A DNA stretch of 64,000 nt, taken from an uncultured Methanosarcinales archaeon (GTDB lineage Archaea > Halobacteriota > Methanosarcinia > Methanotrichales > Methanotrichaceae). Numbering within the stretch: the stretch's first letter is position 1; each line of letters starts with the position of its first letter. The stretch is from positions 64,001 through 128,000 of the forward strand of contig CAWJKV010000003.1 in the NCBI GenBank assembly GCA_963843555.1, written 5' to 3'. Of this stretch, positions 4,350-45,342 are shown piece after piece. The notes under the pieces are model-generated. The model was not told the origin of the DNA. It did not search any database and saw only the letters and a program-made list of their open reading frames with translations. The position numbers and the translations under genes were made by a program.

Positions 4350-4368
4350 CGTACCGCCTCGCAAAAGG

Positions 4369-9099: not shown

Positions 9100-9106
9100 T
9101 TTGCTA

Positions 9107-10947: not shown

Positions 10948-11943
10948 TCAGAGGCTCTCGTAAACCTCTCGGATGATCTTATCGTTCATCTCCCAGAACC
11001 TGTAATCCTCCGGGACCAGCCGCTCGGGCTCTCGCATGAGATTTTCACGTACCGCATTGACAAGTTCTCTTGCCCTCACAACCACCAGGTTCTTTCTTTT
11101 CTCCTCCATGGTCACGCCTGAGGCTACCACAATCTTTCCCAGTGCCAGGTACTCATTGAGCTTCCAGACGCTCTTGTCTGTGGAGTAGGGCGTGAGGGCG
11201 TTTTCTTCCCTGGGTATCAGGCAGAGACGGGCCTTATTCAGCAGAGCTGCTATACTCTCATGGGGCTGCCAGCCCAAATTCTTCACATTATCGGGCTTTC
11301 TCCAGAGATACCACCTGGCAAGAGGCCCACCACCAACTATCCAGAACTCCTGGTCGGGTATGGAACGCGCCACATCCAAGAGCTTTCCAATTCCCTCCTG
11401 GGTGCAGATCCTTCCTATGAAGATTATCGGCTCTCTTCCGGGTGTAACCGCCCATTCCGGACTATCAAGCTCCAGGGACCCTTTGGCAAAGGAGCTATAA
11501 GGATAGTTGGGAATAACGTGCACCTCTTTTTCAGGCGCATATTCTTGCACCTTCCTGCCTAAAGGCGCATTTACCGTGGTGATGATGTCAGCGTTCTTTG
11601 CCAGTTCTTTCTCGAAATGCTCCGCGAATATCATGCCTGGTTTGCCGAAGGTTTGCGCAAACTCGACGCCCCAGGGCGACCTGTAGTCATAGATGAGCTT
11701 TCTGAAGCCTTCCCCCCTCAGACCTGCGAAGCCGTGATAGATCGCATCCGGTACATTGAAGATGTGAACTACATCAGGTTTTTTCTCTCTGGCGATCTTT
11801 TTCGCCATCCCCGCAATTTTGATCCAATTTTTGGTGCCAAAGTTGGGAATTATCACTTCATGTCCCTGGGACTTCAGAGTGCCTCCGAACATCTTCAGCC
11901 GCGTGGTTCTTTCTGGCTGATTGGCTAAAAGAAGTATCCTCAT
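10948..11943 (-). CDS. Glycosyltransferase (GT-B fold)
   Basis: 331 aa with IYDYRSPW, HVIPNY, IFIGRI and KLNEYLALGKIVV. Last gene of the nucleotide-sugar operon. Confidence 0.75.
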   Translation of the reverse strand: MRILLLANQPERTTRLKMFGGTLKSQGHEVIIPNFGTKNWIKIAGMAKKIAREKKPDVVHIFNVPDAIYHGFAGLRGEGFRKLIYDYRSPWGVEFAQTFGKPGMIFAEHFEKELAKNADIITTVNAPLGRKVQEYAPEKEVHVIPNYPYSSFAKGSLELDSPEWAVTPGREPIIFIGRICTQEGIGKLLDVARSIPDQEFWIVGGGPLARWYLWRKPDNVKNLGWQPHESIAALLNKARLCLIPREENALTPYSTDKSVWKLNEYLALGKIVVASGVTMEEKRKNLVVVRARELVNAVRENLMREPERLVPEDYRFWEMNDKIIREVYESL

Positions 11944-11952
11944 GATTTCACT

Positions 11953-13029
11953 CTAATCAAGCGAACCACAAACCAGCTTTTCAATCAGTTCTGCGGTCTT
12001 GATGCTTGCGTCTCCAACGCCGAATGCATCATGACGCTCTTGGCCTGGCTCAAAATGTCTGGCCATCTGAACTATCTTCTCTCTGCTCGAGCCCACAAGC
12101 ACATTCCATCCGTCCGCCACTGTCTCTACCCATTCCGTCTCATCTCTGAGGGTGATGCAAGGGACCCCGAGCAGATAAGCCTCTTTCTGTACGCCCCCCG
12201 AATCGGTAAGAATCTTTTTAGCATTCTTCTCCAGATTGAGCATATCAAGATAGCCCACAGGCTTGATGACTCTGCTGCTCCTGTTCAGGTCATCCCAGAG
12301 CCCGAAATTTCTAAGATATTTCTCTGCACGTGGATGGCAGGGGAAGACTATATCCTCCAGCTCTCCCAACGCCTCTACAATTCCCCTGAGCTTATCAGGG
12401 TCGTCGGTGTTCGACGCTCTATGGATCGTTGCCAGATAGTACTTTTTGGGCTCTATGCCCAGATCCATCAGGATGCGCGATTTATTCTCGGCTACTTTTG
12501 CGCAATCTCTTTGCGCGTCCACCATGACATCTCCTGTCAGGTAAACATTCTTTTCAATGCCCTCTATCTTCAGGTTCTCCACGGCGGTCTTTGTCGGGCA
12601 GAGCAGCAGGTCAGAGCAATGGTCCACAAGCACTCGGTTTATCTCCTCGGGCATGCTTTTGTCATAGGATCTGAGGCCTGCTTCGACGTGAGCTACATTG
12701 ATATGCAGCTTCGCCGCCGCAAGCGCTCCGGCCAATGTGGAGTTGGTGTCGCCAAAGACCAAGACCACATCAGGCTTCTCCAACATTATGACCTCTTCCA
12801 CCTTCTTCAGCATCTCACCGGTCTGGTGGCCGTGGCTTCCCGACCCAATGCCCAGATGATAGTCGGGAGCCGGTATACCCAGGTCATCGAAGAAGATCTT
12901 ATCCATTTCATAATTATAGTGCTGACCGGTATGAATTATTACCTCATCGAACCGTCTTCGCATCTCTCTTGACACGGGAGCAAGCTTGACGAAATTCGGC
13001 CGGGCGCCAACGATAGATGCCACCTTCAT
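11953..13029 (-). CDS. wecB: UDP-N-acetylglucosamine 2-epimerase family protein, WbpI-like by context
   Basis: GARPNFVK, HTGQHY, GDTNSTLAGA, HVEAGLRS..MPEEINR, TDSGGVQKEA and TEW motifs. Confidence 0.9.
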   Translation of the reverse strand: MKVASIVGARPNFVKLAPVSREMRRRFDEVIIHTGQHYNYEMDKIFFDDLGIPAPDYHLGIGSGSHGHQTGEMLKKVEEVIMLEKPDVVLVFGDTNSTLAGALAAAKLHINVAHVEAGLRSYDKSMPEEINRVLVDHCSDLLLCPTKTAVENLKIEGIEKNVYLTGDVMVDAQRDCAKVAENKSRILMDLGIEPKKYYLATIHRASNTDDPDKLRGIVEALGELEDIVFPCHPRAEKYLRNFGLWDDLNRSSRVIKPVGYLDMLNLEKNAKKILTDSGGVQKEAYLLGVPCITLRDETEWVETVADGWNVLVGSSREKIVQMARHFEPGQERHDAFGVGDASIKTAELIEKLVCGSLD

Positions 13030-14237
13030 CGAAGCTCTCCATATCCTTCAGTTTGGCCTGATGCCTCAAACTTCAACTCAAAAGGATCAAAAACCAGATC
13101 TGCATCATCTGGATTGAGATACCTCTGGCCTTTGCCGCGAACCTCTTCTTCGGAGAGGATGGGATCGGCGACGTAGACGTCTAGGCCTTTATCTGCTAGC
13201 AGCTTGGCCAGAGCCAGGTTGCGGCTGTGATAGAACTCTTTTACTCCCGCCCGGAAGGTAATTCCCTTGATGCAGATCTTAACCCGAGAGAGTGGTTTGT
13301 CGAATTTCATACATTCCAGCAATATTTTCTCAGACCAGTACTGAATCATCTCATCATTGACAAGTCTAGAGGTATGCAGCAAACGACATTTATCGAAATG
13401 CTCGCGCATCTCCATCTCTTTTATGAGGAACCAGGGGTAGACGGGAATGCAGTGGCCGCCTACTCCAGTAGAGGGCAGATGAATGTTGCAGAACTGATGG
13501 TTGGCATACTCCCTGGCCTCAAAGAAGTCGATCTCCATCTCCTCGCAGATCTTGAAGAGCTCATTGGCCAGAGCGATGTTCACATCTCTATAGCACCCCT
13601 CCATCACCTTGATCATCTCGGCCGTTTTGGCCGATGAGACCAGATGGAGGTTGGGGATGAATTGTTTGTAGACCTGATAGGCTAAGAGACCGCTCTCTTC
13701 GTCTGTACCGCCTATCACTTTGGGGAATTGCCTGAGCCGTGAGATGCTGTATCCGGTCATTATCCTCTCCGGAGAATAGGCCAGGAAGAAGTCGCCCTGT
13801 TTTAGGCCGCTCGATTCGCATAGCCAGAGCCTCACTTTATCATCGGTCGTTCCTGGTGGAAAGGTGGTCTCCAGCACAACCAGATCTCCCTTCTTCAAGA
13901 TCTGGCCCAAGGACCGCAGGGCCTCTTCCATGATTGAGAAATCTGGGCTGAATCTCTGGTCCACAAAGAGAGGTACGATCACTATGAAGTTCTTACAGAG
14001 TCCGGCATCTATGAAGCGTGATGTGGCGACGAGCCTCTCTCCCCCGTATTGCCTTATCAGCTCTTCTAAACCCTCTTCCTGAGGGATGGGGTTGATCCCC
14101 CGATTTATGAGCTGGCAGCGCTCCTCGTTTATATCAATACCAATGACATTGATGCCGCTGTCGGCAATGACAGCCGCCAGGGGGAGCCCGGCATTGCCCA
14201 GGCCGATCACGGCGATTCTCGCTTTCTCCTCAGACAT
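13026..14237 (-). CDS. UDP-N-acetylhexosamine 6-dehydrogenase (WbpA/WecC family)
   Basis: VIGLG..GLPLA, YSPERI, YRDVNIALANE and GVGGHCIP motifs. Confidence 0.9.
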   Translation of the reverse strand: MSEEKARIAVIGLGNAGLPLAAVIADSGINVIGIDINEERCQLINRGINPIPQEEGLEELIRQYGGERLVATSRFIDAGLCKNFIVIVPLFVDQRFSPDFSIMEEALRSLGQILKKGDLVVLETTFPPGTTDDKVRLWLCESSGLKQGDFFLAYSPERIMTGYSISRLRQFPKVIGGTDEESGLLAYQVYKQFIPNLHLVSSAKTAEMIKVMEGCYRDVNIALANELFKICEEMEIDFFEAREYANHQFCNIHLPSTGVGGHCIPVYPWFLIKEMEMREHFDKCRLLHTSRLVNDEMIQYWSEKILLECMKFDKPLSRVKICIKGITFRAGVKEFYHSRNLALAKLLADKGLDVYVADPILSEEEVRGKGQRYLNPDDADLVFDPFELKFEASGQTEGYGELR

Positions 14238-18226: not shown

Positions 18227-18320
18227 TATATCTCCCGTCTGATTGAGGTGCATAAGAGCTTAAAAATGCTTTCGTAAAAAAACCGAAAAGGCTTTAGGGT
18301 TATTTGCCCCAACTACATGC

Positions 18321-18999
18321 ATGTTGGATGAGTTCAGCCGTTACTCTGCCTTGCAGCGCGATCAATTGCCCCTGGCGACGCTGCTGGTCTACCTGAAGCG
18401 CAAGGGAGGCTTTGTGCAGCTCAACCAGATCTGGAGGGAGCTGGGGCCCACCGGCGGCGGCCCTTTCTGGAACCAGACCACTCTTATCAATAAGCTCGAT
18501 AAGCTGGAGCGGATGGAGGTCGTTTCCATGGAACGGAGGATCCTTCCCTCGCCCCGCGCTGAGGCCAAGAAGAAGACCAACACCTTCTACCGGATCAATC
18601 CGTGCGACGCCGCTCTATCCCTACATCTTCGGCATGCTCAAGATCTACAAGGAGGAGCCGGACAGGTACTCATCTCAGCTGGTGGAAAAACCCCTCGATC
18701 ATCTGTGCGATCTGGCAGGAAAGTCCAGTGCAGGGAGCCATATGATCGGAAGAGAGCTGGAGGTGGCCAGGGAATTGATCAGCGAAGTCTTCTCCGTAGG
18801 AAACGACGAAGTGAAGAGGATGATCAAGGAAAGGATGGCCCGCAAAGGCATGATCAAGGATCGCGATCGCAGAAAGGACCTCTCGGAGATTATTCAAGAA
18901 GGACCAAAAAAAGAGCCCAAGACGGCGACCAGCAAGACCCGTAAGCCCTCCAGAAGGAGGCAGAAGATTGAACCCGTTCCCGAAGAAGAGGCGGAATAG
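18321..18999 (+). CDS. Hypothetical protein, possibly with an N-terminal winged helix; one frameshift
   Basis: Two overlapping ORFs (18321 and 18412 frames) join near 18610 into a plausible ~225-aa protein with a basic C-terminal tail. Confidence 0.5.
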
Positions 19000-19013: not shown

Positions 19014-20749
19014 CTAGCTCCAGCCTCTCTTCTTCCGATAGAGCCGCAGCATCTCCTCCACGGTATCGGGCGTCACCATTCCCGAAGCGGAGATCGTCTC
19101 GTAGAACCTTTTTGGGATGCGGGCCAAGGCGAGGTCGAATCCCTCCTGCACTTTGAATTTATATTTCTCGTCGAAGATCCGCTTTCCCAGGTCCTCCAGA
19201 TCTTCATGGGTCTTGACGATGCCAACAGCACCTAAAGAGTCGATTATGTTCTCTTCGGTGTAGACGCCCCGGGCAAATAAGCAGCCCACCAGGCTGTTGA
19301 AGACGCCGCGAGAGTTGTCCTCTTTGATAAGTTCATCCACCATTTTTTCCGGGTCCATCGCCTTTTTGACCGCCTTCTGGTCGATGGCGTATCCGCCGTT
19401 ATCCAGATGAGAGTGGCGCACGCCTACCAGCTGGCCCACAATGGAGGCGGGACCCGTATGGTAGCCGGATACCTCATTCTTCCCCAGAGCCATGGCAAAA
19501 TCCTGGCCGCCATACTTTTCAGCCGCGTAGCCCACGCCCCGGGCCAGAGCCTGATAGAACTCATTGGGACCTTTGACGATATTCTCCAGGGCTTGAGTGT
19601 AACCAGCTACATTGTTCCACTGCATAGGCACATCCAGCGTCTCCCGGGCCGTGATGAGACCTTTTTCCAGGGCCTCGGTTGCCCAGGAGAGGACAACTCC
19701 TGCAGACATGACATCCAGTCCCATCCTCTCGCAGACGTCGATCAGCTGCAGTATCCCTTCAGCTGAGCCGACTCCCAGATTTGAGCCCAGGGAATAGATG
19801 GGCTCGTAGTCATAAGAGACCTTTCTCACCTCGAATTCGTGATGGGGGGAAAAGTCCGACTTCAGGGCGGCAATGTGCACGCAGCCGATGGGGCACCCGG
19901 CGCAGGATAGCCTTCGAAACAGGTATTTTTCCGCAAACATCTCTCCACTTATCTTCTCCCCCTCGGGGAAGCTGGAGAGCTGGAAGTTATTGGTAGGCAG
20001 CCCTTTGAGCCAGTTGAGGACGCTGATGTTCACAGATGTTCCGATATCGTGGTACTTTTGCATTACGTCCGTCTGGACTGCGGTCTTGTAGAGGCGGTTG
20101 TATACCTCCTTGTACCTCCGGGGATCGGGGACGTCAACGTGCTCTGTCCCTGAGATCACCAGGCCTTGAGCCGCTTCGATCCGAAGACGGCCCCGAAGCC
20201 TAAGCGCCCGAAGTGCCTGTAGGTGTCCACGACAACACCTGCGTAGCGAACCAGGTTCTCGCCGGCGGGCCCTATGCGAATAATGGACCTTCGGCCCACG
20301 CCTGTCTCGTGCTCGCGCAGGATCACTCCCGTGGTCTGGGCATCAATGCCCCATATCGATGTGGCGTCCTTGATTTCGACTTTATCATCGTTTATGGAGA
20401 TATAACTGGGTCGATCTGCCCGGCCGCGGATAACAATGGCCTCGTGACCTGCGAACCTCATGGCCAGAGATAGCCTTCCTCCGGCGTAGGATTCGCCCAG
20501 CTCGCCGTTGAGTGGCGATTTAAATGTCGCCACGGTCTTGGTGGCCACGGGAAAGATGCCATTGAGAGGACCAATGGAGAGGATTATAGGCGCCTCTGGC
20601 GAGAGCGGATCGGTGCCGGAAGGACACTCTTCCTGGAGCAGCTTGATCCCTGCGCCCGTGCCTCCCATCCAGTTCTCGAAGAGTTCTTGCCTCTCCTCGA
20701 CAAAGGATTCTCCTTTAGAAAGATCGATGTACAGAACTTTTCGCAGCAT
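19014..20749 (-). CDS. Tungsten/molybdopterin aldehyde:ferredoxin oxidoreductase family large subunit (possibly GOR-L type), one frameshift near 20160
   Basis: KSPL.GELGES..GG, IGPAGEN, GR.G.GAVFGSK.LKA, CAGCPIGC, DYEP, GLDVMS and SLVGCLF motifs. Confidence 0.9.
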
Positions 20750-20750
20750 T

Positions 20751-21264
20751 TCATCCTCCCGAGGCGGGGACCTCTTCCATCTCCAGAACGCCATGGGGAC
20801 AGAAGTCCACACAGGCTCCGCAGTGGATGCATTTGATGGGCAGTTTCTCTTTTCCCAGGGTTATGGCGCCCACCAGGCAGGCCTTTGCGCATTTTCCGCA
20901 GCCTTTACATAGATCCTTGTGGAAGACCACTCTGCCGTCCGGCTTCTTCTCAAGTGCACCCTCGGGGCAGGCTCTGGCACAGGGAGGCGTCCTCGCAGCC
21001 GCGGCAGACCACGACCCGGAAGTCGCCTTCGATCCCGCCCTGGGTTTGGACCTTGATGGCGCTATTTTGCAGGGATACGGTTCCGGTACGTATTCTGCTA
21101 CAGGCGAACATGCAACCCAGGCAGCCTATGCAGCGCTCGGGATGGGCGACCTTCAAACGGCGGCGCGTTCTGGGCCTGGCGGCCGGAGAGCCTGCGGTTT
21201 TTTGTTGATCAGGCTCTGGCCTTATCTCTGACGCACCGGACTCATCCGTCTGGATAACAGGCAT
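20751..21264 (-). CDS. Polyferredoxin-type 4Fe-4S small subunit, frameshifted
   Basis: CIGCLGCMFAC, CRGC, CKGCGKC and CIHCGACVDFCP across frames. AGGAGG lies upstream. The stop is adjacent to the AOR start. Confidence 0.85.
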
Positions 21265-21386
21265 CAATAGCATTCCTCCTGGGAAAAATTTGCGATATAA
21301 TGGCAGTAATTGGAATAAAATATTGTCGGGCAAAGTATAAAGCTGCTGCTCTTGTAACGGTTTCAATAAGCAGGGGACATTCTGGG

Positions 21387-22289
21387 CTATTTGCCCTTCA
21401 AATGGAATAAATAGACGAGATTTCTCTTCTCCTCCGGGAGAAGCGACTCTGCTGCCATTTCCACCTTCTTTTGATCCTGTCCGCCAGCGATTATTATCCC
21501 TTCGATTATGGCAAACCAGCCCTCTCTGATGCCAATCTCCTTGAGCCTCTTTCGATACTTCCTGGCCTGAACCCTGCCCATCTCCTCGCTGTACACGGGC
21601 AATAGCTCCGGCTTCTCTCTGAGCAGCTCCTCGATCTCCTGCCAGTGAAAGTCTCGGCTTTCCTGGGATCGCAAAAATGCCCTCAGCCTCTCTGAATCGC
21701 TGGGCGCCGCATCCTGGGGAGAGAAGGGCAGCGAGGTTATTATTCCATAGCTCGCTTTTGCCTGGCGAAAGCTGTCGTTGATGCTGCTCTTCATACCCGA
21801 GCCGAAGAATAGATTGTAGCAGCTGAATGAGCCGTCGAAGATGATCTTCTCCTTAAATGGGAGAAGGGTGGCCTGGACAATTCTGGGCAGATTGCCGATC
21901 AGCTCCCATTGCATGGCCAGCCCCTTCACACCGTAGGCCTTGGGCGGATGGCCTTCATCCATGAAGACCACATGGTCCTTTAGAAAGCGGACGATGTAGA
22001 ATCTGCCTTTGACGAAGTGCCGCCAGCTGGATATGATCTCCAGCTCTTCAGCAGAAAAACCCTCGGGATTCTCCCGGACAAATGAATCGATCTGATCAGG
22101 CTCAGAGTAGAGCTTCTCTTTGAGCTTCTCGATATCTTCCAGATCCTTCCCGAAGAGATCCCTGGGATGATTTAAGTTCTTCAGAATTTTGTGTTTTTTA
22201 TTTACATATATCAATAATGAGTGATACAGCCTTAGAAAGAGCTTTCTATCGGCATCTGGAAGGTTCATGGCAGATTCATGGAGCTGCAA
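21387..22289 (-). CDS. Conserved-looking hypothetical protein
   Basis: 300-aa ORF with normal composition, co-oriented with its neighbours. No function recognised. Confidence 0.65.
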   Translation of the reverse strand: MQLHESAMNLPDADRKLFLRLYHSLLIYVNKKHKILKNLNHPRDLFGKDLEDIEKLKEKLYSEPDQIDSFVRENPEGFSAEELEIISSWRHFVKGRFYIVRFLKDHVVFMDEGHPPKAYGVKGLAMQWELIGNLPRIVQATLLPFKEKIIFDGSFSCYNLFFGSGMKSSINDSFRQAKASYGIITSLPFSPQDAAPSDSERLRAFLRSQESRDFHWQEIEELLREKPELLPVYSEEMGRVQARKYRKRLKEIGIREGWFAIIEGIIIAGGQDQKKVEMAAESLLPEEKRNLVYLFHLKGK

Positions 22290-22432
22290 ATATTTGGCTT
22301 TATTCCCGGAAGGTCATGATGAGCAAATCCCTCCATCCCTTTCATCCGTCGCAGCCAGTGATCCAGGCCTCGCTGGCGTTGAGGGGGCCAGATACTCCTC
22401 CGCGCGCGGCGTCCCACCAAAGCAGATTGCAA

Positions 22433-23549
22433 TTACTCCGTGTCCACAAACCTCTTCGCCAGAACTTTCATGACATGGGGCAGGGTGGTGTACTCCATAT
22501 CCTCCATGGGCAGTCTCCCCGGCTCGAAGGGGCCGTGCGCCCTCATGTAGTCAGTGATCTCCAGGCACCTCTGGCGGGCCCGGTCGAAGGCCACGTCTTT
22601 GAAGAGATCGACGGGACCGACGAATTCTCCATAGGCCATCTGGAAGCCGGCGGCAATGACACGGGGCGGGCCGTCGAACCTTGTGGGGTGGGCCGTCTCA
22701 AAGGAGCAGGGCATGAGGGGGCCATTATGGCTGCCGCGCATCCATCCGCTGACCAGGTGCCCGAGCGCAAAAGGCTCCAGCACCTCGCCTAAAGCGGGCA
22801 GGCCCGGACTGACATCTGACCAGGGCCACGGGGTCATCCTTGCCGACGTACGTCCCGGCCGTCTGGAAGAGCTTCTCAGTGCTGACCACGGCAACGGCCT
22901 CCTGTTCCGATATTTTGCTGTTCGGCTTGCAGAAGACCCTCTTGATCACATAGCGGCTTTTTGCGCCAATGAGCGCCAGCAGGTCGTACATCTCTGCAGG
23001 ACAGTCCATGAAGACCCTTCTGTGCTCCATGATGTCCCAGACCTCGAAGGTGAAGCCGTGGTGGCACGCCGGGTCTATCACCAGTCCGGCGGTGTTGAAG
23101 GGGTCGGCGAAGATCTTGAAGATGGGCAGATTGAAGGCACCGGGCTCGGTCTTGTCCATCATGAAGGCAACGACGGGCTCGCTGGTTCTCTCTTCTATCT
23201 CCATCTCCGCCACGCCCGGTCCCATGCCCCGGATGTTGCCAGAGAAGGCGTCCGCCAGCAAGTCCTGCCCGGCGCCGTAGAGCTTGAGCTTCTTGGCCTT
23301 CTCAGTGGCCTCTTCGAAGGTCTCCCAGGCCAGGGCATGCACCTCACCGTTGTCGCAGCCCTTCTTGTGGCTCATGAGCAGCTCCAGATCGTCGCCGCAG
23401 GCCAGCACTCTGAAGTCCGTCAGAGCTCCTGCCTTCTTTGCCTCTTCCAGCTTCGACTCCGCCGTCTTGATCAATGCGGGATGGACCGAGGAGTGGCCGG
23501 GGTAGCCGCCCACATCGGCCTTTATAAGGCTGATTGTTATCTTTGTCAT
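22433..23549 (-). CDS. fbp: Bifunctional fructose-1,6-bisphosphate aldolase/phosphatase (FBPase class V), one frameshift near 22800
   Basis: SLIKADVG, KLYGAGQDLL, DKTEPGAFN, YVGKDDP, GWMRGSH.GPLMP and EYTTLP motifs. Confidence 0.95.
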
Positions 23550-23632
23550 CTGGATCCCATCTGATGCTCTTTGGCGAATACCGCAGATTTGTCTTTATTA
23601 AGTATTATATTGGGGCTTTTGAGGTCTTAAGC

Positions 23633-25075
23633 CTAATTGTGTGCAGTTTCACGGGAGGATGCTTTACGGCTCAGAGGCTCATCGCCTTTCAGCGCCGCGG
23701 GCATTTTCAGCGGCACATCAGTTGGCTTGATGAATTGATCCAGGATAGATCGGGTGCCTTTGACCTTGAGCTTATCAAATAGAAAGGCAAATTTCCTCTC
23801 CAGCTCATTGCAGATTTCGTCGCGGACGTCATTCGGCAGGTGCCACAGCTCCATTTTGAACGGTCCGAAGCCTTTCTTGCGGGTTTTGTAGATGAACTGC
23901 TCTTCCGTGTCCCTTTCTTTCCATTCGCCTTTCATTTCGGCTAACAGACGATCATAAATTTTTGCCCGCAGCGAAGCTGGGAAAGCTTTACTATCATAGA
24001 TCATGTTTTGGAAACCGGTAGCCAGATGAATCTCGGCCGTTCCGGTAGCAGGAAAGCGGTCAAACGCCTCATCGGGCAGCGTTGAAGCGCCGTGCTGAAC
24101 GGCGCCGGACAGACCGTATTGCGCCCGGGCGGTCTCCGACAGTCTCTGCAGCACGTCAAAATCAATTTTGACTTTCGCGACTGTTCCATCGGCCAGCGGC
24201 ACACCGCCATGCGTCGTCCCGGTCTGCACGCTGATCTTGCTGATACCCTTGAGCTCTTGGCCCCGCTTCTTGAGCTCCTCCAGATAGCCGTCCATGAAGG
24301 TCTGCAATTCATCGACAGTGCTGTTCTTGCCGCCAACCTCGCCGATTTCGCCGCCCACAGAAACAGTGATGCCTTCCGGCTCCAGATCGCGAATAAAGGC
24401 GGTTAACTCCGCCGCAAGCGTAAAGTTTGTTCTTTGCTGGTCTTTGACTGTGGGCTGCGACAGATCAACCAGTGTTGATGTATCGATGTCGATATTGTAA
24501 AAACCGGCCTGGATGGCTTCCCGGATCAAATCCTTAACCGTCTCCGTTTCCTTTTCCGCGTCCGCTGCGAACTTTTTGGCGTTTATCTGAAAATGGTCGC
24601 CCTGCAAAAATACCGGTCCGCGCCAGCCGGATTTAACAGCCGCCGCCATAACAGCACAGGTGTATTCCAGCGGCCTTTGCTTTGTATAGCCTATTTCCGA
24701 ACGGGCGATTTCAAAAAGAACAGGCCCTACATTCCCTTTTATCGCGGCACGAAATACTGCCTGCGCCACGTCGTAGGTAATGCCGCGGATATTGATCGCC
24801 GGAACGGTAAATCCGCCTAGTTCTCTGCGCCCCATGGCTTCATAAAGGGATTGGATCGACGCCTGCCTGATTCCCTGCGCAGCAGCGCCGCGGCGAATCA
24901 GAAACCCCGCTGCTTCCGAAGTTGCAGGGTCGGGACTGAAAACAACCGTATAGATTAAATCATCGATCAACTTTTCCCGAAACCTGGTTTCATCCAAGAC
25001 ACGAACATCTCTGCCGTCACCGGCGAGTATGGATTTGCATCCTTTCTTTAGCTGATCCTTATTCTCGTAAATCAT
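23633..25075 (-). CDS. Class II fructose-bisphosphate aldolase family protein, bacterial-type long form
   Basis: PAINIRG, EIARSE, QGDH, IDIDTS, GEIGEVG, GTTHGG, VQHGASTL and EIHLATGFQ motifs. Confidence 0.88.
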   Translation of the reverse strand: MIYENKDQLKKGCKSILAGDGRDVRVLDETRFREKLIDDLIYTVVFSPDPATSEAAGFLIRRGAAAQGIRQASIQSLYEAMGRRELGGFTVPAINIRGITYDVAQAVFRAAIKGNVGPVLFEIARSEIGYTKQRPLEYTCAVMAAAVKSGWRGPVFLQGDHFQINAKKFAADAEKETETVKDLIREAIQAGFYNIDIDTSTLVDLSQPTVKDQQRTNFTLAAELTAFIRDLEPEGITVSVGGEIGEVGGKNSTVDELQTFMDGYLEELKKRGQELKGISKISVQTGTTHGGVPLADGTVAKVKIDFDVLQRLSETARAQYGLSGAVQHGASTLPDEAFDRFPATGTAEIHLATGFQNMIYDSKAFPASLRAKIYDRLLAEMKGEWKERDTEEQFIYKTRKKGFGPFKMELWHLPNDVRDEICNELERKFAFLFDKLKVKGTRSILDQFIKPTDVPLKMPAALKGDEPLSRKASSRETAHN

Positions 25076-25095
25076 TGCTGCCCCTTCGAATGTAT

Positions 25096-26034
25096 TTATT
25101 GCGACAGGAATTCCCCCGCCATTGTCACTTCCGCAGACGAGCCGATGTAGATGGGCGACCGTTGATTGACGGACGTCACTTTGAGGGAAAGAATATCCTC
25201 CTTCCCATCCGTGGCCCTGCCGCCAGCCTGCTCCACGATGAAAGCCATGGGCTGAAGTTCAAACAGCAACCGCAGCTTCCCCTGGGGCGATTTCTTCAGT
25301 GCAGGATAGGTGAATACGCCTCCCCGCTTGATGATCACCTGGTTGATGTCGGGAACAAATCCGCCGCTGTAGCGCAGCTTGTAGCCGTCTGCCTCCAGCT
25401 TATCGATATACTTGCTATGGTTGTCCGTCCAGTCCTTGCGCAGACCGCCAGGTGAAAAGATCGCTCCATTCTCATTGAGCCGGATATTTTCCTCTGACAG
25501 GACATACTCTCCCTCGCGGTCCAATACGAACTCATGCACGCCCTTTCCGGCTGAATAAATCATAGTGATGAGCGGGCCATAAGTAATATAAAGAGCGGCG
25601 ACCATTGAATTCCGGCCGCAGTCAAATATTGAATTTTTGTGGATGCCGATGATCGTTCCGATGGCCAGATTGGTATCCACCAGGGAAGAACCGTCCACCG
25701 GATCGGCGGTAACAATATATTTTTCCTGCCCTTGACCGATGGTGACGATATCTTTGAGCTCCTCGGAGGCATACTCGCGAACAAATCCGGAGTTCCGCAG
25801 CATATTTTTCAGTATGTCGTCGGAAATGCGGTCCAGCGCCAACTGATCCTCACCGTAAACATTCTTGAAGCCGGCCAGCTTGCGGTTGGATTCGTGGATC
25901 TTTGCGGAAATATATTTGCCGACCACGGCAATCTGCCAGATGAGGCGCCGCAATTCCACCTCGATGCCACCCATCCACATATGGCGCCTCAGATCAACGA
26001 TGTATCGAGTGTGATCATTTATGCCTTCGCCCAT
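25096..26034 (-). CDS. Class I fructose-1,6-bisphosphatase
   Basis: NVYGEDQLALD, ASEE, DPVDGSS, LRYSG..VPD, GKLRLLFE.QPMAF and EQAGG motifs. Confidence 0.93.
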   Translation of the reverse strand: MGEGINDHTRYIVDLRRHMWMGGIEVELRRLIWQIAVVGKYISAKIHESNRKLAGFKNVYGEDQLALDRISDDILKNMLRNSGFVREYASEELKDIVTIGQGQEKYIVTADPVDGSSLVDTNLAIGTIIGIHKNSIFDCGRNSMVAALYITYGPLITMIYSAGKGVHEFVLDREGEYVLSEENIRLNENGAIFSPGGLRKDWTDNHSKYIDKLEADGYKLRYSGGFVPDINQVIIKRGGVFTYPALKKSPQGKLRLLFELQPMAFIVEQAGGRATDGKEDILSLKVTSVNQRSPIYIGSSAEVTMAGEFLSQ

Positions 26035-26151
26035 AGATTCTCCTGATATTTTTTAGCAGTCTGCAGGGTATTCTTCGATAATATAGATGTTGCCCCCGCA
26101 CCGAAAAAAATGTGCTTCAATCCTCTAATTGCTGTTTGCCAGATTTTTCCA

Positions 26152-26210
26152 AAATTTTTGCCCGCAGCTCAGCCTGGAAACCAATGCTATCATAGATCAC
26201 GTTCTGGAAA
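26152..26210 (-). repeat. Diverged 59-bp intergenic copy of class II aldolase coding sequence (23956-24014)
   Basis: Ungapped alignment, 49/59 identical by hand count. Reads FQNVIYDSIGFQAELRAKI versus FQNMIYDSKAFPASLRAKI. Confidence 0.8.
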
Positions 26211-26356
26211 GTCTATCCGGCAGAAGTTCTTATATCCGCCAGAGACTCATCTATGCCCGGAAACGGCCAATGAAGACTCAATGTCATTTTGAGAAGGAGT
26301 TGTCCAGATGGCGGAAGGAGTCCCGCTGGCTGAGAAAAAACATCAGGAGCGGTAAT

Positions 26357-27521
26357 ATGGAACTTGTGGCAAAATATCATGTTGAATCAGACCTTCCCAT
26401 CCGGAAGGCCGCAGCGGCCATAGCCGCCGAGCAGTCGACCGGCACCTGGACAGAGGTGCGGGGCGCAGGACAATCCCCTTGCCGCCCGGGTCATATCGGC
26501 CCAGGGGAACGACGTCGAGATCGGCTTTCCTGAAGAACTCTTTGAGCCGGGAAACGTCCCTCAGTACCTCTCTGTGGTGGCAGGAAACCTCTTCGGTCTG
26601 GGCTCTCTGAAGAAGGTGCGCCTGCAGGACGTCATCTTCCCTGAGAGCCTGCTCTCGGCACACAAGGGTCCTCGCTTTGGGATAGAAGACGCGCGCAAAA
26701 TCTTGGGCGTCTACGACCGGCCTTTGGTCGGCACCATTGTGAAGCCCAAGGTGGGCCTGGACCCGGCTGGGACTGCAGCGGTGGCCGCAGCAGCAGTTCG
26801 CGGCGGTCTCGACCTGGTCAAGGACGACGAGACCCTCACCAATCAGAGCTTCTGCCCTCTCGTTCCAAGGCTGGAGGCGGTCATGAGCGCTCTGGATAAG
26901 GTGGAGAAAGAGACGGGAAAGAAGGCTTTTTATGCTGTCAATGTCACCGCGGGCGCGGACAAAATTTTGGAGCGCGCCCAAGCGGCTGTCGATCACGGGG
27001 CTAACATGGTCATGGTCGATGTCCTGACGGCTGGCTTCTCCGCTCTGGAGGTGCTCAGTCGACATGTGAATGTGCCTGTGCACGTGCACAGGACCATGCA
27101 CGGGGCCTTCACCAGGGACAAGGGCCATGGCATCTCAATGGTTGTCATATCCAAACTCGTGCGCATGATGGGAGGAACTAATCTGCATACGGGAAGCTAC
27201 ATGGGCAAGATGGCGCTGGGAACGGAGGAGAACGACCTTTCCCGGGATGCTCTGCGAGAGGAGTGGCACGGCTATAAGCGGGTCTTCCCCGTGGCTTCGG
27301 GCGGAGTGTATCCTGCCAAAGTCTATGGAAATTTGGACGGCTACGGGATAGACTGCATCATCCAGGCAGGTGGCGGAGTGCATGGCCATCCGGATGGAAC
27401 AGAAGCCGGAGCCAGGGCGATGGTCCAGGCAGCGGAGGCATGGCAAGAGCAAATTCCTCTCAAAGAATATGCAAAAGACCACAAAGAGTTGGAAACAGCC
27501 CTGAGATTTTGGGGATCGTAA
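26357..27521 (+). CDS. rbcL: RuBisCO large subunit, short archaeal form III-like, frameshifted near 26470
   Basis: [46 protein letters not shown] (loop-6 Lys), SGG and [10 protein letters not shown]. Confidence 0.85.
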
Positions 27522-27679: not shown

Positions 27680-28006
27680 ATGGCTAGAGACGATATCTTA
27701 TCGAAAATCAAAATGGCAGAGGCTGAAGCCGGGACTGCAGTCCAGCGAGTCCTGGAAGAAAAGGAAAAAAAGATAGCCGCTGCCACTACTGAAGCAATGA
27801 ACCTCGTCAAATCCGCCGAGATTGAATCACAGGACTACTATGACAAGAGCGTTGCCAAAGCAGAGAGCGACGTTATCACCAAAAAGCAGTCAATCATTCA
27901 GAGTGGTGAGAAGAACGTCAACTCGTTAAGCGGCAGCGCCAGCGCAAAGCTGGACAAAGCAGTCGAATATCTTATGAAGGAGTTTATGGGGTTGTTGCAT
28001 GCTTAG
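27680..28006 (+). CDS. atpH: A1AO ATP synthase subunit H
   Basis: 108-aa coiled-coil protein (ILSKIKMAE), first gene of the operon. Confidence 0.85.
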   Translation: MARDDILSKIKMAEAEAGTAVQRVLEEKEKKIAAATTEAMNLVKSAEIESQDYYDKSVAKAESDVITKKQSIIQSGEKNVNSLSGSASAKLDKAVEYLMKEFMGLLHA

Positions 28007-30032
28007 ACCCGTAAAGATGAGTCGCGTAGTCGTCGCCGGGTCAAAGGATGTAATATCTCCTGTTGTTGAAAAGCTGCATGAGTTGCGCTTGTTGCACATT
28101 ATCAACTACGATGGCAGCCAGCCTGAGTTTGAGTTGGGAAAGTCTATCGGTAAAGCTAAGGAATATTCTGAGAACCTCATCAAACTCAGATCCGTCACCA
28201 GGTACCTTGATATCAAGAACAAGGCTCCTGAGAAGACCTATCCTGAGTCGCAGGTTCTATCCGAGATGGACAATCTTCTAAATAATGTCGGCGGGGAAAT
28301 TACCGCTACCTTCGAGCGCATCACTGCGATCGAAGCAGAAGTCAAGTCCAAGCAGGATCAGATAAAGTCTCTAACTCCTTTGTCTGCCTTGCCGCTGCCG
28401 TTAGATGCTTACTATGGTTATGATTCTCTGGCGACCTTTGTCGGCACAGCAGCAACCCCTGTTGATGCTGACGTAGCGAGGGTCTCTCCGGTTAATGAGA
28501 TCTACACAGGAACCGCCAAGAAAGCAACTCTTGTTGCGATATTCGTGCCTGTAGACAAGGCCGGCGACGTATCAACAGTTCTTTCCGAGCATGGGTTTTC
28601 TGAATTATCCGTTCCCAAGCTTGAGGGCAATGTAGACTCGGCAATTGCGACTTTAGAAGGCGGCATCAAATCCCTGGAAGGCGAAATGGCGCCTCTCCAG
28701 AAGAAGCTGGCCGACATGAAGAAGCAGAATGAAGACCTGATACTGGCGACAGACGAATATCTGACGATGCAGACCCGCAAGACTGAGGCACCACTCAGAT
28801 TCGCTGAGACGGCCAATGCCTTTGTGATTGACGGCTATGTTCCGAGCGATCAGTTCAGCAGGCTGAAGAGCGAGCTGGAGAGCGCAGCCGAAGGCCGGCT
28901 AGAAGTACAGTTGATCGCGGACAATGAATCAGAAGAACTCGTAGAGAAGGGCGAAGACATACCGACCAAGATGGATAATCCAAGCCTGGTCAGGCCTTAT
29001 GAACTCGTCACAAGGCTATTTGCCATTCCAGAGTACAAGGAGTTCGATCCGTCATTGCTGATATTCATCTTCTTCCCGATCATGTTCGGCATGATCCTGG
29101 GTGATATCGGATATGGCCTCATGACGCTCGTGGTTCTGATATTGCTCAAGAAAAAGTTCAGAACCGAAGGGTGGCAGCAGCTGATCAACATCGTCATGAT
29201 TGCCAGCGTGTGGTCAATCATATTCGGAATCTTCTACGGTGAGATCTTTGGGCCGTTAGGTCTATGGAATTATATGTTTGGAATGCTGTCTCACGCGCAA
29301 ATTGTGGTGTTGGAAGAGGAAGGCCTGTTCTTTGGTGAAGGTCTCTATGGATCTCTTGGAAGGCTCGGCCCGTTGGATATCTTCCCGTTATATAGATTGG
29401 CAACTAATGCGGTTCTGCTTTTGATAGGCGTAAGTTTGTTTATTGGTGTAGTCCATTGTTCTGTGGGCTCCATTTTGGGAATCAAGACGGAGCTGAACTA
29501 CGGCGAGAAGAAGCATGCCTATTTCGAGCGCCTTCCTGTGATGCTTTTCCAGGTATTCTTTGCTATTGCATTACTTGGACTGGTCATGGGACAGATGCCA
29601 ATGGTAATCCTGGGCGCAATAGTGATCGTTGTCTCCATAGGGATGATGGTTATGGGACCGGAAGGTGCCATGGGACTGGCTCACGTGCCATCCTATGTGA
29701 GCAATCTGATATCCTACCTGAGGCTTCTGGCCATCGGCCTGGCTTCGGTCGGTTTGGCATATGCCGCCAATCAGTTGGCCTTCTATGTCATAATGCCCAT
29801 GTTAAGCGGTGGAGCGACGAATAGTGCTGATTTCACAATACCTGCCATTATCGTGGGTATGGTGGTCTTGGTGCTGGTGCACTTCATCAACTTCCTGCTG
29901 GGAATTCTGTCTCCTTTCATGCATCCTCTCAGGTTGCATTATGTGGAGATGTTCACGAAGTTCTACAGCGCTCATGGTGGTGGAGTGGAATACAGTCCCT
30001 TCGGACATGTCCGGAGGTTCTTGAAGGCATGA
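27999..30032 (+). CDS. atpI: A1AO ATP synthase subunit I (a)
   Basis: PEYKEFDPS, FGMILGDIGYG, SYLRLLA and LRLHYVEMFTKFY motifs. Confidence 0.95.
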   Translation: MLRPVKMSRVVVAGSKDVISPVVEKLHELRLLHIINYDGSQPEFELGKSIGKAKEYSENLIKLRSVTRYLDIKNKAPEKTYPESQVLSEMDNLLNNVGGEITATFERITAIEAEVKSKQDQIKSLTPLSALPLPLDAYYGYDSLATFVGTAATPVDADVARVSPVNEIYTGTAKKATLVAIFVPVDKAGDVSTVLSEHGFSELSVPKLEGNVDSAIATLEGGIKSLEGEMAPLQKKLADMKKQNEDLILATDEYLTMQTRKTEAPLRFAETANAFVIDGYVPSDQFSRLKSELESAAEGRLEVQLIADNESEELVEKGEDIPTKMDNPSLVRPYELVTRLFAIPEYKEFDPSLLIFIFFPIMFGMILGDIGYGLMTLVVLILLKKKFRTEGWQQLINIVMIASVWSIIFGIFYGEIFGPLGLWNYMFGMLSHAQIVVLEEEGLFFGEGLYGSLGRLGPLDIFPLYRLATNAVLLLIGVSLFIGVVHCSVGSILGIKTELNYGEKKHAYFERLPVMLFQVFFAIALLGLVMGQMPMVILGAIVIVVSIGMMVMGPEGAMGLAHVPSYVSNLISYLRLLAIGLASVGLAYAANQLAFYVIMPMLSGGATNSADFTIPAIIVGMVVLVLVHFINFLLGILSPFMHPLRLHYVEMFTKFYSAHGGGVEYSPFGHVRRFLKA

Positions 30033-44719: not shown

Positions 44720-45151
44720 TCAATTATAATCTGCTTTTTCGGCCATGATCATTGCCGGCGTTTTTCTTTGAATATTGGTTGAGTCGAAGTCCTTGTCGAA
44801 GCTCACAAGTATTAGATCATTATTTCGTGCTGCAACATATTGATACGCATCGTCGAAATCCAGATCCTGCTCTCTCATTGCAGATAATAAATCCCGCAGA
44901 TCTGCAAGGCTCAATGCGATTCTCTTGACTCCAGTCTCCTCTAAAAGATCCGATAGAAAAGCTGCAAATACATCTTCCTTTTTCAGGCGAGAAGTTATTA
45001 TTCCAATTGAATAGAGCGTGAATTCCGTTAGAGATATTTCGTCCAACTGAACCATCTGCAAGAACTTGCGGACCTCATCGGCATGCTGCTGCCTTAAGAG
45101 TAATTCTAGCCATACGTTTGAGTCGATGAGGTAGCTCAATCGCTCCACCAA
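44720..45151 (-). CDS. vapC: PIN-domain (VapC-like) toxin
   Basis: YLIDSNVWLE N-terminus, LDFDDAYQY and SFDKDF acidic PIN motifs. Overlaps the upstream small gene. Confidence 0.88.
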   Translation of the reverse strand: MVERLSYLIDSNVWLELLLRQQHADEVRKFLQMVQLDEISLTEFTLYSIGIITSRLKKEDVFAAFLSDLLEETGVKRIALSLADLRDLLSAMREQDLDFDDAYQYVAARNNDLILVSFDKDFDSTNIQRKTPAMIMAEKADYN

Positions 45152-45342
45152 TCCAGGGACTTTTTCTGCAATTCAAGAGAAGTATAATTTTCTTTGAACT
45201 CGGCCAATCCGCCCGCCCAGTCAAACCGTAGCTTTTTGCGCTTGGGTTTGCTCTTTTTTTCAGCGAGGTATTGGGCGAAATCCAGAACCTCTTGCTGGTG
45301 TTGGGAGGAAAGTTTGGCCATAAGTTCGCGGATCTGCTCCAT
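45136..45342 (-). CDS. Antitoxin, DUF2281-like
   Basis: 68 aa with EVLDFAQYL and LRFDWAGGL, directly upstream of the PIN toxin. Confidence 0.8.
   Translation of the reverse strand: MEQIRELMAKLSSQHQQEVLDFAQYLAEKKSKPKRKKLRFDWAGGLAEFKENYTSLELQKKSLDWWSD

Follow-up and report, generated by a model that had tools for sequence, protein, structure and literature searches.

Gene organization of the locus

The window, a 64,000-nucleotide stretch of the genome of an uncultured Methanotrichaceae archaeon of the acetate-consuming methanogen genus Methanothrix, had been described in the first-pass annotation as carrying rbcL divergent from a co-oriented run of FBPase I, class II aldolase, FBP aldolase/phosphatase (FBPA/P), hypothetical, polyferredoxin (here WorS) and AOR-family large-subunit (here WorL) genes. 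We found all of them at the coordinates that it gave (Table 1). The 322-bp region between FBPase I and rbcL presumably carries the promoters of both genes. Downstream of rbcL, the genes of A-type ATPase subunits H and I adjoin it in all relatives' loci too.

Table 1. Features of the locus and its immediate context (positions in the window).
Feature	Position	Strand	Remarks
Conserved hypothetical beside WorL end (context)	18276..18966	+	frames +3 then +1
WorL	19014..20749	-	large pyranopterin subunit, AOR/WOR-family oxidoreductase; intact length 578 aa, ATG at 20749
WorS, polyferredoxin small subunit	~20751..21366	-	~16 Cys
Hypothetical, 300 aa	21387..22289	-	outside conserved core
FBPA/P (FBP aldolase/phosphatase)	22433..23549	-	PF01950; ORFs 22725-23549 and 22433-22894
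Class II (metal-dependent) aldolase-like, divergent, 480 aa	23633..25075	-	PF01116
Class I fructose-1,6-bisphosphatase (FBPase I)	25096..26034	-	PF00316, PF18913
Divergent intergenic region FBPase I/rbcL, 322 bp	26035..26356		sequence read
rbcL, short form III RuBisCO large chain, ~387 aa	26357..27521	+	ORFs 26129-26533 and 26574-27521; PF02788, PF00016
A-type ATPase subunits H and I (context)	27680..30032	+	PF01496; downstream of rbcL

The match of FBPA/P to PF01950 is divided between its two ORFs (positions 1-242 and 242-360), and an intact orthologue scored 578.5 on NF041126 against a cut-off of 520. The aldolase-like gene reached 67 bits on PF01116 (cut-off 25.5) and stayed under the cut-off of all NCBIfam aldolase models, the best being TIGR00167 cbbA with 57.5 bits; against the PDB it matched KbaY with only 26.5 bits, and the motifs DH, GEIG, GTTHG and QHGAS were recognized by eye. 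FBPase I scored 124.7 bits on PF00316, 143.3 bits on PF18913 and 355.6 bits on NF006783, the last under the cut-off of 521. These two genes are restricted to one subclade of the genus. An intact rbcL orthologue gave 409.9 bits on TIGR03326, under the cut-off of 497; the motifs KPK, KDDE, HR, GK, SGG and GGG are present in the translation, and the start at 26357 was confirmed. The 300-aa hypothetical protein had no match in Pfam, NCBIfam or PDB and matched unnamed clusters only in the Atlas; its gene is found in the congeners G015, G012, G005 and G022, and not in G019 and G024.

Frame changes in the locus genes

WorL, WorS, FBPA/P, rbcL and the conserved hypothetical gene beside WorL are each split over two frames in the window, and relatives carry the locus genes as single open frames. 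WorL passes from frame -1 to -3 near 20160, and WorS from -2 to -3 near 20960-20987, as located by tblastn of intact orthologues. Near-identical contigs covered the other three of the five sites: the shift in FBPA/P at 22806 is one extra base that contigs X14, X8 and X2 lack, that in rbcL at 26465 is one extra base that the X14 contig lacks, and that in the hypothetical gene at 18603 is one extra base that the X8 contig lacks. Against short-read contigs of at least 97% identity, all six indels lie at short homopolymers where the window has a single base too many; three of them coincide exactly with these frameshift sites. Outside the locus, 28 of 151 sampled orthologues carried frame changes (44 in 160 kb, 0.27 per coding kb), compared with 5 in 16.8 kb (0.30 per kb) at the locus. 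Genome-wide, strongly conserved genes are among those hit, as many as four times in some cases, and the source genome has a 'completeness' of 82% with only 18 contigs.

Since the density equals the genome-wide rate and every indel is one extra base in the window, the frame breaks in WorL, WorS, FBPA/P and rbcL are assembly artefacts. That the locus is decaying and these four are real pseudogenes would agree with the packing of the five changes into 8.2 kb, with two sites (~20160 and ~20975) lying beyond the near-identical contigs, and with the congener G005 (99% complete, 2 contigs), in which rbcL has truly decayed and the WorS-WorL pair (WorSL) is lost. However, a density equal to the genome average, the hits in conserved genes, the one-sided indels and a completeness of 82% with just 18 contigs make decay very improbable.

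Conservation of the gene arrangement

FBPA/P-WorS-WorL occurs in 11 of the 11 Methanotrichaceae loci with enough flank, and rbcL is divergent in ten of these, the eleventh contig beginning inside FBPA/P. The same arrangement was present in four separately fetched genomes of the same genus (G019, G015, G012 and G024). The conserved core across Methanotrichaceae is rbcL / FBPA/P-WorS-WorL, and its recurrence in all these loci and genomes places the arrangement beyond chance; the synteny that the first-pass annotation had put up for checking is thus family-wide.

Within the genus, a WorL orthologue is missing from 9 of 24 congeners. Three of them (G017, G020 and G022, 93-95% complete) keep intact rbcL and FBPA/P without WorSL, and G005 keeps FBPA/P beside its degraded rbcL. 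From these genomes it follows that WorSL is dispensable in the genus.

Family placement of WorL and WorS

WorL matched AFOR_N (PF02730, 20156-20812(-), 224.5 bits) and AFOR_C (PF01314, 19014-20159(-), 222.6 bits). The intact orthologue P0001 has 578 aa and is 98% identical, and the ATG at 20749 was confirmed as the start. Four [4Fe-4S] cysteines align to 1AOR, and T, E, Y and H align to the second-shell residues T243, E313, Y427 and H448 of PfAOR; in the alignment, WorL thus retains the cluster cysteines together with the complete second-shell set of four catalytic residues known from WORs that oxidise aldehydes. The GOR clade keeps all four of these residues, whereas GAPOR keeps only T and E (PMC12096430).

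WorS ends 1 nt before the WorL start, and its own start falls within 21156-21366. Its ~16 Cys suffice for four [4Fe-4S] clusters, its orthologues have 16-17 Cys, and against NCBIfam it gave sub-threshold matches to Fe-S subunits only. The gene immediately upstream of WorL is a WorS in 77 of the 80 loci, and the remaining three are cut at the contig end. The two-subunit (Class II) form is found in 40 of the 92 WOR clades, so this architecture alone is not diagnostic, and one characterised enzyme of this class, PfASOR, uses sulfonates and not GAP (PMC13328260).

Where the first-pass annotation had asked for placement against the AOR and FOR clades, WorL grouped with neither PfAOR nor FOR and formed a separate clade, which had 100% local support when compared with the ten closest representatives of the rest of the family. 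The best PDB match was PfAOR with only 275 bits, compared with 427-692 bits within the clade; PfASOR/WOR5 (PDB 6X1O) gave only 147 bits with a WorL orthologue, over the first 411 residues. An identity with archaeal GAPOR was rejected, the model NF040818 giving only 29 bits over the first ~125 residues, the Tyr/His region being kept and WorS being present. The tree and comparisons were made without the C. bescii GOR sequence, so that likeness to GOR means architecture, residues and gene context. Two further AOR paralogues in the genome score 402 and 398 bits on AOR models, compared with 223 for WorL.

Gene context of the WorL clade in other lineages

FBPA/P-WorS-WorL is also found in a Methanocellales MAG (L069), and in a bacterial MAG (L121) WorS is immediately preceded by a 35-aa FBPA/P 3' end at the edge of the contig. 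As a label on the WorL tree, this linkage needs at least three changes, so it does not go back to a single inheritance. Elsewhere, WorL is directly followed by a PF00365 PFK gene (L098 and L134) or by a 1-PFK/hexose-phosphate kinase gene (L066 and L067; TIGR03828 303.6, cut-off 292). L101 has ADP-PFK/GK and class II FBP aldolase genes on the same strand 4-6 kb upstream; pyruvate kinase is near WorL in L110, L119, L131 and L118, alpha-amylase and GH57 genes follow it in L097 and L100, and L093 has PGM/PMM. The contexts outside Methanotrichaceae are otherwise heterogeneous, with many short contigs, and no sugar-phosphate gene was seen in ~53 of 66 such loci within at most five called ORFs on each side of WorL. 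The context in unrelated lineages points to the EMP trunk, and the adjoining PFK, 1-PFK, ADP-PFK/GK with aldolase, pyruvate kinase, glycogen and FBPA/P genes support GAP as the substrate.

That WorSL acts ferredoxin-dependently on another aldehyde or acid, such as formaldehyde (from the hexulose-phosphate step), glycolaldehyde or glyceraldehyde, or in general aldehyde detoxification, with a historical rather than functional adjacency to FBPA/P, is possible but doubtful. The role of most WOR clades is not known, and several take broad aldehyde sets (PMC13328260); among solved structures the broad-spectrum PfAOR is the nearest relative, the neighbours are unrelated at most loci of the clade, and several congeners dispense with the pair. 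Against this, at least five separate lineages have EMP or glycogen genes immediately beside the pair (Methanotrichaceae/Methanocellales, the M. harundinacea subgroup, L121, L098 and L134), where we would roughly expect ~1% per locus by chance, an estimate made without a formal test, and the two AOR paralogues could handle general aldehyde oxidation.

Pathway genes and the proposed role of WorSL

The genome was searched for the partner genes that the first-pass annotation had named. PRK is present (NF005655, 314 bits, cut-off 236), as are Fae-Hps-like genes. The genes of PRK and PGK lie away from the locus, and so does a divergent GAPDH-like gene. The latter carries an SCNTT motif and is ~90% conserved over the genus, whereas the canonical GAPDH C domain (PF02800) was missing from all 25 genomes of the genus and present in 16 of 16 in sister families. 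AMP phosphorylase and ribose-1,5-bisphosphate isomerase are also encoded away from the locus, so RuBisCO could receive its substrate without PRK. With PRK, PGK and the GAPDH-like gene present, no bypass is required.

We give an even chance to the reading that the locus is a conserved Methanotrichaceae sugar-phosphate island, with the two-subunit, tungsten-type WorS-WorL as a predicted ferredoxin-linked GAP/3-PGA oxidoreductase working like C. bescii GOR. Its substrate is likely GAP, most probably oxidised. The pair would run mainly as GAP -> 3-PGA with reduction of ferredoxin, for example during glycogen breakdown, while FBPA/P, FBPase and the aldolase may work the other way, in gluconeogenesis from 3-PGA, a compound that RuBisCO would also supply. 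The island may thus bring together, around the product of RuBisCO, the enzymes by which the flux from triose to hexose is set. Because FBPA/P works only in the gluconeogenic direction, having it as a neighbour is in itself no sign of an oxidative role. Only 0.05-0.06 of the words were present in the RNA runs. Methanothrix stores glycogen (cited in PMC12525153), and for the GAPOR reaction, said to run one way only in vivo, oxidation is put at an estimated -26.1 kJ/mol (PMC12525153).

The last figure bears on the opposite direction, in which reduced ferredoxin made by cleaving acetate would power an ATP-free step 3-PGA -> GAP, pulled by the irreversible FBPA/P beside it and replacing PGK and GAPDH as a ferredoxin-linked short-cut. 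Here 3-PGA could come from RuBisCO or PEP, and in Methanotrichaceae, where the arrangement is conserved, the enzyme has its place exactly between the 3-PGA producer rbcL and the GAP consumer FBPA/P; the genus-wide absence of PF02800 and the joint rbcL decay and WorSL loss in G005 are also in line with it, and members of the AOR family can use low-potential donors to reduce acids (PMC9295118). Yet besides the energetics, PGK and the conserved GAPDH-like gene are present, the genes that accompany WorL in other lineages (PFK, 1-PFK and pyruvate kinase) are catabolic, and three congeners retain rbcL and FBPA/P without WorSL, so that reductive operation appears unlikely. The earlier reading therefore stands in part: the placement outside AOR and FOR, the presence of PRK and the conserved synteny agree with it, whereas its PGK/GAPDH bypass is unsupported.

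Comparison with known systems

The closest counterpart of the proposed oxidative WorSL is C. bescii GOR (formerly XOR), a heterodimeric tungsten GAP:ferredoxin oxidoreductase of Class II WOR, clade 20. Both combine an AOR-family large subunit with a small polyferredoxin of four [4Fe-4S] clusters, with the ferredoxin gene first in the operon (PMC6391272, PMC13328260); both retain all four second-shell residues, and WorSL is likewise cytoplasmic, no signal peptide being seen by eye. As with GOR, glycolytic genes adjoin the WorL clade in several lineages. The WorSL host differs in being archaeal and mesophilic, and its pair clusters with RuBisCO and gluconeogenic FBP enzymes instead of the tungstate transport and pterin genes of C. 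bescii.

The archaeal GAPOR of P. furiosus and M. maripaludis (Class I WOR, clade 23, NF040818) shares the AOR/WOR family, the proposed conversion of GAP to 3-PGA with ferredoxin, and a proposed role in methanogen glycogen or sugar catabolism. In contrast to WorSL it is monomeric and without WorS, and WorL keeps the Tyr/His region (PMC12096430). PfASOR/WOR5 (Class II WOR, clade 40) resembles WorSL in its WorL and WorS subunits and its link to ferredoxin, but its substrates are aliphatic sulfonates and aldehydes. To our knowledge, no sugar-phosphate gene context has been reported for it.

The RHP pathway of methanogens has the same form III-a-type RuBisCO and archaeal PRK, Methanosaeta PRKs being active (Kono et al. 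2017, PMC5241800), and the present genome has Fae-Hps-like and PGK genes as well; it differs in also having AMP phosphorylase and R15P isomerase. A word search of the text of PMC5241800 returned neither the present gene cluster nor any WOR enzyme. Bacterial cbb (Calvin cycle) operons likewise place RuBisCO beside class I FBPase and a class II cbbA-like aldolase. Unlike them, the present cluster is without PRK, transketolase, GAPDH and PGK, its aldolase-like gene is far under every equivalog cut-off, and its FBPase I and aldolase-like genes occur in only one genus subclade.

Gene Order of the RuBisCO/FBP Island

We translated the genes at 19014-27521 and ran profile searches on them, and the identities that the first-pass annotation had given them (RuBisCO, FBP enzymes and a two-subunit AOR-family oxidoreductase) hold. 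The WorS stop codon lies 1 nt ahead of the WorL ATG, and an A-type ATPase operon follows rbcL in the window. For the 300-aa hypothetical protein (hyp300), no family, no structure match and no named Atlas cluster were found. Literature searches combining Methanothrix or Methanosaeta with RuBisCO, AOR, gluconeogenesis and GAPOR returned no description of the cluster; subscription journals, the C. bescii source papers and bioRxiv supplements were outside their scope. Elsewhere in the window, a PIN-domain gene stands beside UPF0175 and DUF3368 genes (44720-46426). These genes look like toxin-antitoxin pairs. The GC content around them is lower (0.43-0.48 from 42 to 50 kb), and a DUF11 surface-type protein of 1366 aa is encoded just after this stretch (49752-53852).

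Genes of the RuBisCO/FBP island in window coordinates
Feature	Position	Strand	Remark
Class I FBPase (FBPase I)	25096-26034	minus	first in transcription order
Divergent class II aldolase-like protein, 480 aa	23633-25075	minus	
FBPA/P, bifunctional FBP aldolase/phosphatase	22433-23549	minus	
Hypothetical protein, 300 aa (hyp300)	21387-22289	minus	
WorS, polyferredoxin	about 20751-21366	minus	
WorL, AOR/WOR-family large subunit	19014-20749	minus	last in transcription order
Gap, 322 bp	26035-26356		between FBPase I and divergent rbcL
Short form III RuBisCO (rbcL)	26357-27521		divergent from FBPase I

Broken Frames Are Assembly Errors

The genome holding the window (2.68 Mb, 18 contigs, 82% complete) belongs to the genus Methanothrix, judged by the names that near-identical proteins carry. 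It has many frame errors, and within the island WorL, WorS, FBPA/P, rbcL and a neighbouring hypothetical gene (18276-18966) are read in two frames. We mapped the ORFs of 20 evenly spaced 20-kb stretches of the complete congener G019, together with its syntenic stretch, onto this genome and found frame changes in 33 of 165 orthologues. Outside the locus 28 of 151 orthologues were affected (44 changes in 160 kb, 0.27 per kb), and inside it there were 5 changes in 16.8 kb (0.30 per kb). The PGK gene of the genome is likewise split by a frame change. Compared with contigs of at least 97% identity from four public runs, all six indels were one extra base in the window (18252, 18603, 22308, 22806, 26465 and 27531) at short homopolymers. 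Three of the six coincide exactly with frame breaks, namely those in the hypothetical gene, in FBPA/P and in rbcL; these contigs do not reach the breaks near 20160 and 20975. Relatives carry single open frames, among them a 578-aa WorL (98% identical) and the intact genes of G019. Given the genome-wide density of frame changes, the extra bases relative to near-identical contigs and the intact relatives, the broken frames of the island are assembly errors, and its genes are almost certainly intact in nature. Locus-specific pseudogenisation was ruled out by the equal density across the genome and by the single extra bases against near-identical contigs. Since the checkable frame changes are all single extra bases at short homopolymers, the many split genes of this window and genome should not be taken as pseudogenes. 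Split genes elsewhere in the window lie at 8012-10777 (NTP-transferase and glmS-like pieces), 3130-4576 (glycosyltransferase pieces) and 39168-40515 (a PALP fragment).

WorL and WorS as a Two-Subunit AOR-Family Enzyme

WorL matched PF02730 (AFOR_N, 224.5 bits) and PF01314 (AFOR_C, 222.6 bits), both far above cut-off; the domains are on two frames in the window and on one 578-aa frame in the intact orthologue P0001. The [4Fe-4S] ligands C283, C286, C290 and C490 do not vary across 18 clade members. Through alignment by hand, we found that the second-shell Thr, Glu, Tyr and His of WorL correspond to T243, E313, Y427 and H448 of PfAOR (1AOR); the second-shell and ligand residues of aldehyde-oxidising members are listed in PMC13328260 and PMC12096430. 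PfAOR is also the closest solved structure (275 bits), with FOR, WOR5 and BamB scoring lower. Two further AOR paralogues in the genome are 26% identical and reach about 400 bits on AFOR_C, versus 223 for WorL.

Among the 80 loci from named genomes that we kept of 558 relatives, WorS is directly upstream of WorL in 77, and the other three end at a contig edge. The six WorS orthologues read contain 16-17 Cys. By eye, the RRRLKV stretch of WorS leads directly into the first Cys motif, and nothing hydrophobic lies between them; a Tat signal or membrane anchor on WorS would indicate Class V. Judged from sequence, WorL plus WorS has the architecture of a Class II WOR (PMC13328260), a cytoplasmic, ferredoxin-linked class in which WorL is encoded beside a small subunit with four [4Fe-4S] clusters.

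A search of 1.84 billion representatives gave a sharp score step: about 15 full-length clusters scored 427-692 bits (41-54% identity), and the rest of the family scored about 280 bits or less. In a FastTree phylogeny of 77 WorL sequences plus outgroups, built without L075 (a 412-aa fragment), L103 and L135 (no full ORF called), the WorL clade was monophyletic relative to ten of the next-best representatives (SH-like support 100%). Bacillota subgroup L136, L139 and L121 is the sister of the methanogen subgroup. In the same 80 of 558 relatives, the clade ranges over Methanosarcinales, Hydrothermarchaeota, Bathyarchaeia, Thermoproteota, Chloroflexota, Desulfobacterota, Nitrospirota, Atribacterota and Bacillota.

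No full-length GAPOR match to WorL was obtained: NF040818 gave 29.2 bits over model positions 5-126 (cut-off 1300), and none of 14 control genomes passed either. Caldicellulosiruptor did not occur among the cluster names of 20 representatives, the Atlas search returned generic AOR clusters only, and the C. bescii GOR was not one of the 80 loci that we took from the 558 relatives. Neither sequences nor clade lists for Methanothrix or Caldicellulosiruptor appear in the supplements of PMC13328260 and PMC9424855.

Conservation and Loss of the Island

The gene order is the same in congeners G019, G015, G012 and G024, and FBPA/P-WorS-WorL occurs in all 11 Methanotrichaceae loci with enough flank among the 80 of 558 relatives (Methanothrix spp., M. 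harundinacea and Methanocrinis; WorL 67-86% identical). Divergent rbcL-atpH-atpI was found in 10 of these 11; the eleventh contig begins inside FBPA/P. FBPase I and the aldolase-like gene lie between rbcL and FBPA/P in one subclade only, and only some genomes carry a copy of hyp300. Because these three genes are patchy, the conserved core is rbcL divergent from FBPA/P-WorS-WorL.

The FBPA/P-WorS-WorL order is also present in the Methanocellales MAG L069. In the bacterial MAG L121, the last 35 FBPA/P residues stand at the contig edge directly before WorS, and in L122 FBPA/P is 10 kb from WorL. On the WorL tree, FBPA/P linkage requires at least three state changes.

A WorL orthologue is missing from 9 of 24 congeners, and three genomes of 93-95% completeness (G017, G020 and G022) keep rbcL and FBPA/P without it. 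In G005 (99% complete; L140, G005:C1:2156000-2175000), the rbcL orthologue next to atpH has decayed: it is spread over two frames and has an in-frame TGA. WorS is lost, and all that is left of WorL is a 47-aa C-terminal relic. FBPA/P, FBPase I, the hypothetical gene and the aldolase-like gene are intact there. Since WorSL is absent from congeners that keep rbcL and FBPA/P, it is an accessory and not an obligatory partner of RuBisCO. G005 also has a second RuBisCO elsewhere in its genome (483-aa frame, 41% identical). The FBPA/P of G024 (98% complete; L016, G024:C12:542500-562000; gene at about 12779-13333) is missing residues about 71-250, owing either to a deletion within the gene or to a fault in the assembly.

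RuBisCO, FBP Enzymes and the Supply of RuBisCO

The RuBisCO translation contains KPK, KDDE (with the carbamylated Lys), HR, H, GK, SGG and GGG, which we take to be the catalytic-residue motifs of the enzyme. The intact rbcL orthologue is a short form of 387 aa and scored 409.9 bits on TIGR03326, below the cut-off of 497.45. For FBPA/P, the intact orthologue of L072 reached 578.5 bits on NF041126 (cut-off 520), and the two pieces in the window scored 389.3 and 164.1 bits over model positions 1-242 and 242-356. The class II aldolase-like protein matched PF01116 (67 bits, cut-off 25.5) and fell far below cut-off on all 13 NCBIfam aldolase models; on visual inspection, the alignment showed DH, GTTHG and QHGAS motifs.

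About 56 kb from the island, the contig also encodes PRK (NF005655, 314.4 bits, cut-off 236). A Fae-Hps-like gene (128 bits, cut-off 200) and the best PHI score (55.9 bits, cut-off 160, in a genome 82% complete with frame errors) were below cut-off. AMP phosphorylase (G000:C18:63646-65136; 740 bits, cut-off 535) and ribose-1,5-bisphosphate isomerase (G000:C6:14812-15705; 433.5 bits, cut-off 314) both exceeded theirs, so a pentose-bisphosphate route coexists with PRK, and RuBisCO can be supplied through PRK, as in the RHP route, or through the AMP route. The RHP route, which the first-pass annotation had cited as background, feeds RuBisCO through PRK (Kono et al. 2017, PMC5241800); the text of the supplement to that paper shows no gene table for M. 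concilii. Of the RHP set of RuBisCO, PRK, HPS, PHI, PGK, GAPDH and FBP enzymes, RuBisCO, PRK, PGK and FBPA/P were found here; no canonical GAPDH domain was found in this incomplete genome, but it encodes a divergent GAPDH-like protein.

Gene Context Points to GAP as Probable Substrate

We clustered the ORFs around WorL in all loci and scanned the non-Methanotrichaceae and M. harundinacea-type representatives against Pfam (292 cluster representatives: 54, 148 and 90); the second-round scan left out two of 240 (L085:9392-11578 and the 2911-aa L096:12154-20889). The results showed a PF00365 phosphofructokinase right after WorL in L098 (Desulfobacteria) and in L134 (two copies), and a 1-PFK/hexose-phosphate kinase in the same place in M. 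harundinacea-type L066 and L067 (about 11835-12770; TIGR03828 303.6 bits, cut-off 292). A DeoC/LacD aldolase lies two genes further on in Methanocrinis (L068:12666-13601), which, taken with the kinase, suggests a catabolic FBP-forming and FBP-cleaving pair beside the tungstoenzyme. In the M. harundinacea/Methanocrinis branch the island thus extends beyond WorL. In L101, an ADP-PFK/GK and a class II FBP aldolase lie upstream of WorL, at a distance of 4-6 kb and on its strand. Pyruvate kinase is encoded near WorL in four loci, three from Bathyarchaeia and one from Bacteroidota; L097 and L100 have alpha-amylase and GH57 genes after WorL, and L093 has phosphoglucomutase. Roughly 53 of 66 loci, many of them short, showed no EMP/glycogen gene among the ORFs called around WorL. 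In the RNA runs X19 and X20, only 0.05-0.06 of the words were found.

EMP/glycogen genes are immediately adjacent in at least five separate lineages, versus about 1% per locus expected by chance (a rough estimate and not a formal test). Because this adjacency is far above the chance expectation, the gene context gives moderate support to GAP as the probable substrate of WorSL. What the first-pass annotation observed holds, and its interpretation is supported in part; the bypass of PGK and GAPDH that it raised as a possibility has no support.

Direction of the Reaction

PGK is kept in the genome. Within the genus, none of 25 genomes matched the canonical GAPDH C-terminal domain PF02800, versus 16 of 16 in two sister families. 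A divergent type II GAPDH-like protein of 384 aa (G000:C5:318836-319990, locus L033:1339-2493) shows about 90% conservation across the genus, and the sources name it GAPDH. It keeps the SCNTTGL motif and scored 90.5 bits on NF003251 (cut-off 185), with no Pfam hit and no obvious N-terminal GxGxxG. A second GAPDH-like paralogue is also present, with G000:C2:94375-95263 recorded for the same observation. The conserved GAPDH-like protein with its catalytic SCNTT motif rules out the idea that Methanothrix lacks GAPDH and must replace it with GOR, and its presence together with PGK argues against the proposed bypass.

WorSL might instead reduce RuBisCO- or PEP-derived 3-PGA straight to GAP, with reduced ferredoxin from acetate cleavage and an irreversible FBPA/P pulling the unfavourable equilibrium. 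Such a reaction would be the ATP-free, ferredoxin-driven reduction phase of a Calvin-like or RHP route and would account for a genus without the canonical GAPDH domain. Two things speak for it: WorSL sits between an enzyme that makes 3-PGA and one that consumes GAP, and the genus shows the PF02800 pattern. AOR-type enzymes are also able to reduce acids (PMC9295118). We nevertheless consider it improbable. We favour an oxidative, glycolytic role, in which WorSL would convert GAP to 3-PGA, because most WorL partner genes outside Methanotrichaceae are catabolic, PGK and the GAPDH-like protein are kept, and, according to PMC12525153, the GAPOR reaction has an estimated value of -26.1 kJ/mol and runs in one direction only, and Methanothrix stores glycogen (citing Pellerin 1987). 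The GAPDH-like protein and PGK, together with FBPA/P, would then serve gluconeogenesis. We infer both substrate and direction from sequence and gene context.

Comparison with Known Systems

Methanothrix is a major acetate-consuming methane producer and among the most energy-limited organisms known, and to our knowledge its central carbon metabolism is known almost solely from genomes. If WorSL is a ferredoxin-linked GAP/3-PGA enzyme connected to RuBisCO and FBPA/P, it would rank as the first assignment of a GOR-type enzyme to a mesophilic archaeon. One of the many WOR clades still uncharacterised would gain a function, and the supply of tungsten/molybdenum would be tied to how methanogens store carbon and use RuBisCO. 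WorSL, encoded in a conserved RuBisCO/FBP island, is a candidate for an archaeal enzyme of the GOR type. According to PMC12096430, the clade of GOR, the heterodimeric enzyme of C. bescii, keeps all four second-shell residues, and GAPOR, the archaeal counterpart, only Thr and Glu. GAPOR is monomeric and has lost the Tyr/His region, whereas WorL has a WorS partner and keeps both Tyr and His.
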